Below, piece by piece: positions 2,918 through 4,145 of a stretch of DNA of 64,000 bases (positions within the stretch are counted from its first letter, which is position 1; every line of letters starts with the position of its first letter). Both the position numbers and the translations under genes were made by a program. Below the pieces are notes generated by a model. That model did not search any database. It had not been told where the DNA came from and saw nothing but the letters and a program-made list of their open reading frames with translations. Origin of the DNA: Nostoc sp. (GTDB lineage: Bacteria > Cyanobacteriota > Cyanobacteriia > Cyanobacteriales > Nostocaceae). The stretch lies in the NCBI RefSeq assembly GCF_036917935.1, contig NZ_JBALEL010000022.1, positions 111,460-175,459 of the forward strand. Direction: 5' to 3'.

Positions 2918-3016
2918 AGGCAGGGGAAGTTCGAGGTTTTGAGACAACCGAATTAGTTTTTGAGTTCACAAAAACTATTTTTGAGCTAGAAGAATGAGTA
3001 TCTATAGGACTAGTAT

Positions 3017-3881
3017 TTGATTTTTGAAATGCAGGTAGTGGACTGTCATGGCTTTAATAGTGCATTAGACGTAGACGTAGGTTGGGTGGAGCGGAGCGCA
3101 ACCCAACTGATTATCAGGATGTTGGGTTACGCAAAGCCTCCACCCAACAAAGCAATTTTTTTGCTCGATGAATTTTTGGGTTCCCAAAAGAACGAAATAT
3201 ATGCGGACAGCAATATTGTATGGTCTTTAATACCCAATACTGTCGTACCAAATGCTTCCATCTTCCATAATGGTATTAGAGAAAATAGCCTTACAAATGT
3301 TATAGAAGCCCTCGACCGAACGCAAATCGGCATTGGTGAATGTTAGCACCATCGAAAGAGGAGTGGTTCACGAAAGCATCCCTGAGAATAGCATGGCTGA
3401 AATTAGCGCCATTAAAACCGCATTGATACATTTCGGCTCTGCTCAGGTTGGCGTTGACAAAGGAAGTATTGATGAAGTTGGCTTGACCACCTCTAGCCTC
3501 ACTCAAATTAGCGCCGTTAAGGATGGCTTCATTCAACTCAGTTCCTTCCATGTAAGCTCCTTTGAGATTAGCCCCACTGAGATTGGTATTGTCCAGATTA
3601 GTACCCTCCAAAATAACTCCTTCCAAATTAACTCTGCTCAAGTCAGCCCCGCTCAAGTCCATATAAGTAAAATTCAAACCAATTTCAATGAAATCAAGAA
3701 GTCCAGCAAAGTTTCTCTCTCCAGCTGTATACCTTTCCAAGAATTCTTCAACATCCATAACTCAACTTCGGTATCAACTAACACGTATAAAGATAACCCA
3801 CTCAATCTCTGGTCTAACCTCTTCGACCCCACCTTGAATATTGACATCCAAATCTAAGACCTACCCAGAAGACCTGATTAG
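3017..3881 (+). pseudogene. Interrupted plus-strand reading frame enclosing the pentapeptide gene in antisense; possible fragment of a giant cyanobacterial secreted protein
   Basis: ORFs 3017-3346 and 3333-3857 join into one frame if the same base at about 3341 is removed. The frame extends beyond the pentapeptide gene on both sides and ends NLWSNLFDPTLNIDIQI*DLP. Confidence 0.45.
3227..3758 (-). pseudogene. Pentapeptide repeat protein with a +1 frameshift at about 3341 (pseudogene or sequencing error)
   Basis: MDVEEFLERYTAGERNF start and A(N/D)Lxx repeats. Removing one base at about 3341 changes the aberrant end ANIHQCRFAFGRGLL* into ANFTNADLRSVEGFYNICKAIFSNTIMEDGSIWYDSIGY*, a normal pentapeptide C-terminus (stop at 3227-3229). 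Confidence 0.8.
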
Positions 3882-3919: not shown

Positions 3920-4145
3920 TATAGCGGTTCTCAATTGCATGAAATACAGACCTAACCCCAGCCCCTTCCCTACTAGCGTTGGGGAGTAAGTCTCAAAACC
4001 TCTCTCCTTTTAAGCTACCCTGTACACACAAGTCATCGAATTACCCAAAACAAAAGAAAAACCTCACCCTGTCCTATCTTTAATCCCTCTCCTTACTAAG
4101 GAGAGGGACAGATTTTGTGTAGTAAAATCAGGGTGAGGTATTGCG
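3920..4145. repeat. Composite of non-autonomous repeat elements with stem-loops
   Basis: TATAGCGGTTCTCA-type end at 3920, CCCCAGCCCCTTCCC motif, GTACACACAAGT motif, ACCTCACCCTG...CAGGGTGAGGT inverted pair, and hairpin TCCCTCTCCTT/AAGGAGAGGGA (4084-4108). Confidence 0.65.

Follow-up and report, generated by a model that had tools for sequence, protein, structure and literature searches.

The stretch of DNA analysed here, referred to as the window, comprises 64,000 nucleotides of contig NZ_JBALEL010000022.1 from Nostoc sp. (the window's own genome is labelled G000; G### denotes other genomes and L### the loci compared). It carries a short gene for a pentapeptide-repeat protein (PRP) on its minus strand and, opposite this gene, a longer open frame on its plus strand (Table 1). 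The locus is very probably what remains, orphaned and decaying, of a two-strand coding module; relatives have the module intact, with the PRP gene antisense within the gene of a giant protein.

The minus-strand frame as present belongs to Pfam family PF00805 (E=2e-29, 101 bits against a cut-off of 20.2). Its nearest solved structures, closest by sequence, are All3740 (3du1) and Np275/276 (2j8k), cyanobacterial PRPs whose function is not known. The copy in the window is not full-length, a 1-nt insertion cutting it to 152 residues; removal of T3341 brings the minus-strand protein back to 176 residues, with an N-terminal cap reading RYxAGERNF and a C-terminal cap reading ...TIMEDGSIWYDSIGY. The minus-strand context of the extra base is GCTAAC[A]TTCACC, and the six orthologues compared at this site all have GCT AAC TTC ACC; the orthologous genes are intact at 176-177 residues and 64-85% identical to the window PRP. 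The extra base is either a true pseudogene lesion or an assembly error. None of three PRPs was present in an exact-sequence cluster look-up.

The same correction acts on the plus strand. The sequence-only reading of this DNA had proposed that one base separates two plus-strand open reading frames (ORFs), and deletion of T3341 does join them into 279 codons reading ...RTQIGIGEVSTIERG..., a frame that overruns the PRP start by 99 nt (to a TAA at 3855-3857, followed by DLP) and the corrected PRP stop by 210 nt. This frame is the exact codon-aligned antisense frame of the PRP; the same triplets are read on both strands, so that it can be stopped only by sense TTA, CTA or TCA. In the 3606 long ORFs of G000, TTA and CTA together make up 42% of Leu codons and TCA 16% of Ser codons, aligned antisense stops occur at 5.8 per 100 codons, and only 2 ORFs have none. 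For the 176 codons of the window PRP 9.3 antisense stops are expected and, after the 1-nt correction, the probability of finding none is 8.5e-6; the openness of the plus frame is thus more than chance. The only other long G000 ORF without an aligned antisense stop, a repetitive 378-codon ORF (HRHRRVIISSSIEVFS...; G000:C28:79643-80779, minus strand), may be the shadow of a repeat-protein gene or a second two-strand case.

A plain shadow ORF, open merely through the codon and amino-acid composition of the PRP (RNY-type codons, purine-any base-pyrimidine) and never a gene in its own right, is the simplest alternative. The codon-aligned antisense frame is the one most often open, and the PRP consensus A-(D/N)-L-S-G is largely encodable by RNY codons. 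Antisense frames of pentapeptide genes are not open as a rule, however, a caveat raised with the sequence-only reading itself: 33 of the 42 pentapeptide genes of G000 carry 2.8-14 antisense stops per 100 codons. The nine others, all short, form a separate group with 0-2 such stops, in which TTA, CTA and TCA are hardly used and GCA, ACA, GTA and ATA are avoided too; GGA, AGA, AAA and GAA are not avoided.

Homology bears on the same alternative. A word-indexed protein search with the plus ORF gave no match, as a shadow would; a full HMMER search later matched 147 predicted proteins (E down to 9e-24). These matches are internal to proteins of up to 2153 residues and reach the end of the query, including the tail that lies beyond the PRP. 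Endonuclease_NS was found upstream of the match in three of the five long hits scanned, and immunoglobulin-like (Ig-like) domains downstream. Of the 36 residues of the tail, 30 can be aligned with five giant proteins (59-73% identity), at a place immediately behind the PRP region of these proteins; the best alignment, TNTYKDNPLNL----FDPTFNINLQITDLP, has 73% identity (E=1e-17 against 20.5 thousand residues). The in-frame TAA of the window replaces a Thr of these proteins. The resemblance of this tail to a segment of giant cyanobacterial proteins (...FDPT..NI.ITDLP.GQLAEA), pointed out in the sequence-only reading, is real: ...LFDPTLNINLQITDLPTGQLAEAQ... occupies precisely this place in the giant proteins of relatives.

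Homologues for the two non-overlapping ends of the plus frame were thus found on one side only: the 3' tail (3759-3866) matches giant proteins in a syntenic place, and the 5' extension is inserted DNA. The flanks of loci L017-L019 align with the window at 93-95% identity and lack about 217 bp right after the PRP stop. Dozens of 71 plus-frame matches in the window's own genome are confined to the initial ~50 codons (3017-3170); they lie on either strand, many contain stops, and they represent a dispersed repeat resembling a miniature inverted-repeat transposable element (MITE). The 210-nt 5' extension (3017-3226) is therefore not an old portion of the gene, as had been supposed, for it sits in repeat DNA missing from the orthologous loci. 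No host gene continues on both sides of the PRP in the window, with repeat DNA on one side and a 36-codon relic ending in a stop on the other, and no nuclease or DLP domain of the kind described below was found anywhere in G000. We regard the locus as a relic on the strength of the tail homology, the inserted repeat DNA and this lack of the nuclease and DLP domains.

Table 1. Features of the locus (window coordinates)
Feature	Position	Strand	Remarks
PRP gene	3227..3758	-	176 codons + stop after 1-nt correction; stop TAA 3227-3229
PRP open frame as present	3300..3758	-	152 residues; out-of-frame tail ...IHQCRFAFGRGLL, then stop
Single inserted base	3341	T on +, A on -	disrupts PRP frame and plus frame alike
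Shine-Dalgarno (SD)-like purine run, weak (GAAG..GAG)	3762..3770	-	3-11 nt 5' of PRP ATG; by sequence comparison only
Plus-strand ORFs	3017-3346 and 3333-3857	+	joined by T3341 deletion
Plus reading codon-aligned with PRP	3230..3758	+	probable S/T/Q-rich linker relic of a giant exoprotein gene; stop-free, split by the 1-nt insertion
Start of 'DLPxGQLAEA...HExxH' domain, probable relic	3759..3866	+	36 codons, NSTSVSTNTYKDNPLNLWSNLFDPTLNIDIQI-stop-DLP; PRP 5' leader on minus strand
Inserted DNA, ~220 bp	3006..3225		directly after PRP stop; not in orthologous loci; gives apparent 5' extension and TTG 'start'
MITE-like dispersed repeat	3017-3170		inverted arms 3081-3091 and 3138-3148

The PRP leader (3759-3782) reads HNST...TNTYK... 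in the window, L016 and L021 and HKGLPRNK... in L017-L019; the leader was thus swapped in one sub-lineage while the gene was retained. Between the PRP relic and the next minus-strand gene, positions 4081-4140 (plus strand) hold a hairpin, TCCCTCTCCTTACTAAGGAGAGGGA, with a T-rich tail and a terminator-like score, which also gives a sub-threshold match to the Rfam whalefall-1 RNA (29.5 bits against 37, E=2.7e-5).

Giant genes with a nested PRP gene in relatives

Multi-kilobase ORFs that carry this segment together with an intact antisense pentapeptide ORF had been named as the support to look for, and relatives possess them. The longest, on contig C41 of G050, runs to 10,408 codons from stop to stop and to 10,376 from its first ATG; others have at least 9,667 (G163), 4,330 (G155), 4,229 (a plasmid of Stanieria PCC 7437) and 3,524 codons (G162). 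In all, the order is Endonuclease_NS, an S/T/Q-rich linker and the 'DLPxGQLAEA...HExxH' domain (DLP domain hereafter). On its N-terminal side the G050 protein shows, by Pfam and in this order, a Peptidase_M10 motif, CARDB (22 matched stretches), PA14, PPC, Ig-like arrays, an RHS repeat, a Dockerin, a beta-propeller and Endonuclease_NS (117 bits). The nuclease is followed by a family-less stretch of 175 residues, which is the antisense reading of the PRP, then by DLP...HETGH, Big_9/Cadherin and PKD. With Endonuclease_NS and RHS repeats in the giant gene of relatives, the earlier description of the plus frame, as left over from a giant and possibly toxin-like gene that carried a passenger on its antisense strand, has held up well.

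The PRP is the longest antisense ORF within the 31 kb of the G050 giant gene. Nested PRPs occur in eight Nostocaceae genomes (G050, G163, G155, G115, G162, G161, G187, G082) and, beyond these, in the Stanieria PCC 7437 plasmid, Leptolyngbya SIOISBB, Scytonema NUACC21, two ENA genomes and one NCBI metagenome-assembled genome (MAG). An ATG-started, codon-aligned PRP fills the space between nuclease and DLP domain in 13 of the 13 nuclease-bearing giant genes or large fragments whose DNA was examined; a purine run (GGAGG, GAAGG, GAGG or similar) stands a few bases 5' of every nested ATG, and the five nested ORFs tested all exceed the Pfam Pentapeptide threshold, at 67-108 bits. The giant frame stays open through ten nested modules, with no stop among their 372 Leu and Ser codons. 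A region search with the nuclease-linker-DLP segment retrieved 46 annotated giant proteins, among them those of Chlorogloeopsis sp. ULAP01, Scytonema sp. NUACC21 and Leptolyngbya sp. SIOISBB and the 'outer membrane adhesin like protein' of Stanieria cyanosphaera PCC 7437.

These genes decide against the plain shadow, which we consider extremely improbable: the tail that does not overlap the PRP matches giant proteins, giant ORFs cross the region in relatives, and the finished Stanieria plasmid (CP003654.1), in which the public annotation already calls a 151-residue antisense gene inside the giant gene (at about 226.6-239.3 kb), argues against the giant ORFs being assembly artefacts.

Two further observations concern contigs of this type. 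The MAG contig (L259, JBCCOE010000155.1), labelled Bacteroidota, is a 7.1-kb contig made up entirely of a giant-gene fragment with nuclease and double nested PRP of cyanobacterial type, at 40% GC; its bin label may be wrong. Giant-gene fragments at loci L204, L207, L208 and L056 (other Nostocaceae; Calothrix sp. CCY 0018) begin or end with the translated MITE-like repeat family (…MLGFVPQPNL…), and such repeats seem to be a frequent breaker of giant genes, leaving nuclease-PRP-DLP cassettes of 200-800 codons.

Selection, codon usage and orphaned copies

The ratio of nonsynonymous to synonymous substitution rates (dN/dS), proposed earlier as a check, was estimated in both frames for giant genes of three genera (G050, G163, G155) and for an independent pair with a double PRP (G187/G161), that is four pairs from five genomes. 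Such estimates are confounded in overlapping frames, and weight was put on how the overlap differs from its surroundings. In the nuclease and DLP flanks the giant frame has a dN/dS of 0.17-0.40 and the opposite frame about 1, with changes at giant third positions. Inside the overlap this is reversed: among G050, G163 and G155 the PRP has 0.26-0.33 and the giant frame 0.79-0.99 (dS 0.8-1.3), with changes at PRP third positions. The G187/G161 pair gives 0.37 for the PRP against 0.77 for the giant frame in the overlap, and a contrast of 0.31 against 1.11 downstream. Within the overlap it is thus the PRP whose amino-acid sequence is conserved, whereas the giant linker can change as long as its frame remains open; the two strands are both under constraint, each of its own kind.

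The converse possibility, that the pentad-repeat linker of the giant protein is the sole real coding sequence and the nested PRP an untranslated shadow of an ancient inverted PRP gene, finds some footing in the frameshift of the window's own PRP and in the shortened look of the Scytonema copy. It is very unlikely, since third positions of the PRP are where changes accumulate in the overlap (0.26-0.37 for the PRP against 0.8-1.0 for the giant frame), since all 13 of 13 cases, which span cyanobacterial orders and have saturated dS, retain a full PRP ORF complete with ATG, SD and the two caps, and since orphan PRPs are under purifying selection without any giant gene.

The suggestion that both strands encode beta-helix repeats found no support, the giant frame having a dN/dS of about 1 and being modelled as disordered. 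AlphaFold2 returned a predicted local distance difference test score (pLDDT) of 37.5 and no strands for the window plus ORF, and a plus-strand beta-helix was rejected on this ground, itself weak evidence because the alignment was shallow (10 rows); the modelled product would fit a disordered linker. Such an unconstrained linker might also be expected if an intein or another splicing or bypass element housed the PRP and the linker were removed from the mature giant protein. This, too, was rejected and is highly improbable: a Pfam scan of the giant protein shows neither a Hint nor an intein domain, the linker comprises little besides the PRP read in antisense and some 35 residues to either side, which leaves no room for splicing blocks, and a dN/dS of about 1 is incompatible with a conserved splicing domain there. 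Moreover, the linker frame is kept open, which argues that it is translated.

Several explanations of the codon anomaly were tried. Expression-type bias fails, for the photosystem, phycobilisome, RuBisCO and EF-Tu genes of G000 keep TTA, CTA and TCA at 11-16% each, and the highly expressed genes avoid AGA, AGG, GGA and AGT, the very four that the PRP class prefers; the bias of the class is thus not of the expression type that a shadow ORF could have drawn on. Shared repeat ancestry of the codons fails as well, since orthologues have reached a synonymous divergence of 0.97-1.16 and still show 0-1 stops. Avoidance of k-mers or nuclease sites is contradicted by the other antisense frames of the same genes, which hold 4-23 stops, so that stop avoidance is specific to one frame. 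A general avoidance of NYA codons (N any base, Y pyrimidine) fitted the numbers with a class defined independently of stops, yet as a whole explanation it was set aside, being identical with the footprint of the giant frame: NYA codons are rare in the PRP because the giant frame avoids TAY, TGY, TGG and stop codons. The NYA control codons number 30 of 526 in the ten nested modules, and the giant-frame linker contains 0.2% Cys, 0.5% Trp and 0.9% Tyr and is rich in Ser, Ile, Gln and Thr. Also among the G000 genes poorest in TTA, CTA and TCA are two near-identical ORFs of 395 residues, TnpB-like by sequence reading (G000:C33:37636-38823 and C16:96295-97482), whose codon usage suggests recent acquisition.

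In the intact module, as relatives show it, the gene of a giant secreted protein reads nuclease, a linker of 140-300 residues, DLPxGQLAEA...HExxH and Ig-like domains, and a complete PRP gene with its own SD, ATG and stop fills the linker codon for codon on the opposite strand. Within the overlap the giant frame would be constrained only to remain open and to avoid Cys, Tyr and Trp codons, and this would force the PRP off TTA, CTA, TCA and the other NYA codons. The near absence of these codons would thereby gain an explanation. The giant gene is absent from G000; the window PRP keeps 36 codons of the neighbouring domain and has acquired a repeat insertion 3' of its stop and the 1-nt insertion that breaks both frames.

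Orphaned copies are informative about this course of events. Eight PRPs of the nested class occur in G000, all of them orphans, and several retain a TNTYKDNPLNLW..LFDPT flank just beyond their start. The seven other than the window copy, with 0-2 giant-frame stops and the TNTYKDN..LFDPT relic in several, include two tandem pairs and lie at C39:49348-50838, C39:180533-181135, C51:316095-, C64:93521-95674 and C8:40237-40815; at C39:50212-50838 the antisense ORF exceeds the PRP gene in length and would mislead a gene caller. Among the seven orthologues of the window group the PRP has a dN/dS of 0.07-0.36 and the plus frame about 1, and three independent stop-creating mutations (TTA, TTA, CTA) break the plus frame in four of them, as a shadow would also allow. 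The plus frame is already decaying in this group. Other orphan PRPs carry 1-8 giant-frame stops, as predicted if constraint is relaxed once the giant gene is lost. More widely, 140 PRP genes with an N-terminal RYxxGERxF, fetched from 51 of 61 Nostocaceae genomes, are for the most part unremarkable in their codons. In a minority, antisense stops are missing and NYA codons nearly so, and there the antisense frame overruns the PRP, into ...LFDPTLNINLQITDLPTGQLAEAQ... beyond its start and into the C-terminal part of the nuclease domain beyond its stop.

A possible role beside the nuclease

The PRP accompanies the nuclease closely. In G043, G172 and G138 there are giant homologues that match the G050 protein collinearly on both sides of the module, and all three lack nuclease, linker and antisense PRP; at these loci (L246, G043:C23; L247, G172:C9; L248, G138:C50) the genes have 9,000-9,700 codons, L247 having about 470 unidentified residues at the module site. 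Among the 46 public giant proteins, all 28 that bear the nuclease have 140-420 residues between it and the DLP domain; a linker is detectable by blastp in 16 of these 28 and in none of the 18 nuclease-free proteins. One fragment, L205, has kept only nuclease and PRP. The catalytic His and the Asn..PQ metal site of the nuclease are kept in nine genes, and the PRPs have an isoelectric point (pI) of 4.3-5.4. YjbI-like pentapeptide genes often adjoin GH-E His-Me finger Rhs toxins without a known immunity gene (PMC5714182), and PRPs are known as DNA mimics, MfpA and Qnr among them (PMC7980463).

From this co-occurrence, the retained catalytic residues, the acidity and the published context of PRPs we infer, tentatively and short of an even chance, that the PRP, acidic and shaped like DNA, serves as inhibitor or immunity protein by binding the nuclease domain and blocking it. 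Nesting would then keep nuclease and inhibitor inseparable, and orphans would persist as stand-alone inhibitors. The fuller version is rather unlikely: a DNA-mimic immunity protein encoded on the antisense strand of its toxin gene, inseparable from it by recombination and coupled to it in expression by convergent transcription, with the orphans as an arsenal against the nucleases of neighbours.

It is also doubtful, but has to be weighed seriously, that the nested PRP is functional and unrelated to the nuclease, for instance as an antisense throttle or timing device for the distal part of the giant gene, as a chaperone or secretion factor, or as a selfish passenger. On its own strand the PRP starts just upstream of the sequence, strongly conserved, that codes for the DLP domain; convergent transcription within a 31-kb gene must interfere; and orphans survive in a genome without the nuclease. 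Against this, PRP and nuclease come and go together in collinear giants while the DLP domain is present in all, and the PRP always stands directly after the nuclease domain; L205 has kept this pair and nothing else of the module.

For the two-strand module and for the inhibitor function proposed for its PRP, several points weigh on the other side. The coding of both strands in the nested module is predicted from sequence, and the dN/dS estimates behind it share the confounding mentioned above. The nested ORF of Scytonema is short (123 residues) and may be degenerate, and a simple promoter scan found no sigma-70-like promoter upstream of the window PRP. The eight orphans of G000 are nearly stop-free without a giant gene, which needs either recent orphaning or another force keeping NYA codons rare. 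The nuclease lies about 940 residues before the C-terminus of the giant protein, not at the tip as in classic polymorphic toxins. Finally, most PRPs are acidic, which makes charge weak evidence for DNA mimicry.

Comparison with known systems

Literature searches found no published description of this arrangement. It resembles polymorphic toxins such as Rhs and CdiA in its large secreted protein with RHS repeats and a His-Me finger nuclease, in the tightly linked small gene, and in the many orphans, some in toxin-free genomes; with the GH-E Rhs toxins it shares the association of PRPs with His-Me nuclease toxins (PMC5714182). It differs from polymorphic toxins in that the nuclease is some 940 residues from the C-terminus and the small gene is antisense and nested instead of downstream on the same strand; the toxin and immunity roles are putative here.

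A second parallel comes from Anabaena sp. PCC 7120, where NucA is a secreted sugar-non-specific nuclease and NuiA its intracellular inhibitor. Both systems pair a cyanobacterial nuclease of the Endonuclease_NS family, destined for export, with a small protein that stays in the cytoplasm and could shield the producing cell. NuiA, however, is not a PRP and is encoded by a separate, non-overlapping gene, whereas the nuclease here is one domain of a giant protein.

MfpA, Qnr and AlbG are DNA-mimic PRPs (PMC7980463, PMC7897471). They share with the window PRP class the acidic right-handed quadrilateral beta-helix, the DNA-like size and, if the proposed role holds, protection against a DNA-binding enzyme, but they act on DNA gyrase. 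Inhibition of a nuclease is not known for any PRP. If the proposed role is true, no nuclease-inhibiting PRP would precede this one, nor any toxin-immunity pair whose two genes share the same DNA on opposite strands. For one class of the very numerous cyanobacterial PRPs, the link to a nuclease domain as partner is a first concrete clue to function.

Only a small number of long antisense overlapping genes have been proposed in bacteria; they are contested, and the majority are young ORFs without a known family. Embedded examples are those of E. coli O157:H7 (PMC9927249) and olg1/olg2 of Pseudomonas aeruginosa (PMC8850804). Here, as there, a whole gene lies inside a gene of the opposite strand and purifying selection acts on the embedded one. 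In contrast to these young overprinted ORFs, which belong to no known family and sit in ordinary hosts, the PRP module has a nested gene of an old family (PF00805), a host side that has lost amino-acid constraint, conservation across orders and a host of 2,000 to more than 10,000 codons. For annotation the module carries a warning: gene callers pick either the giant gene or the PRP, and in the finished Stanieria PCC 7437 plasmid CP003654.1 the overlap is annotated without comment. What sets the module apart is that the nested gene belongs to a textbook family, that the arrangement is kept from Nostocales to Pleurocapsales and Leptolyngbya-type genomes, that the selection signal flips sharply at the borders of the overlap, and that orphans show decay of the host frame after loss of the host gene. 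Taken together, these features make it an uncommonly clear case in nature for the study of coding sequence shared by two strands.

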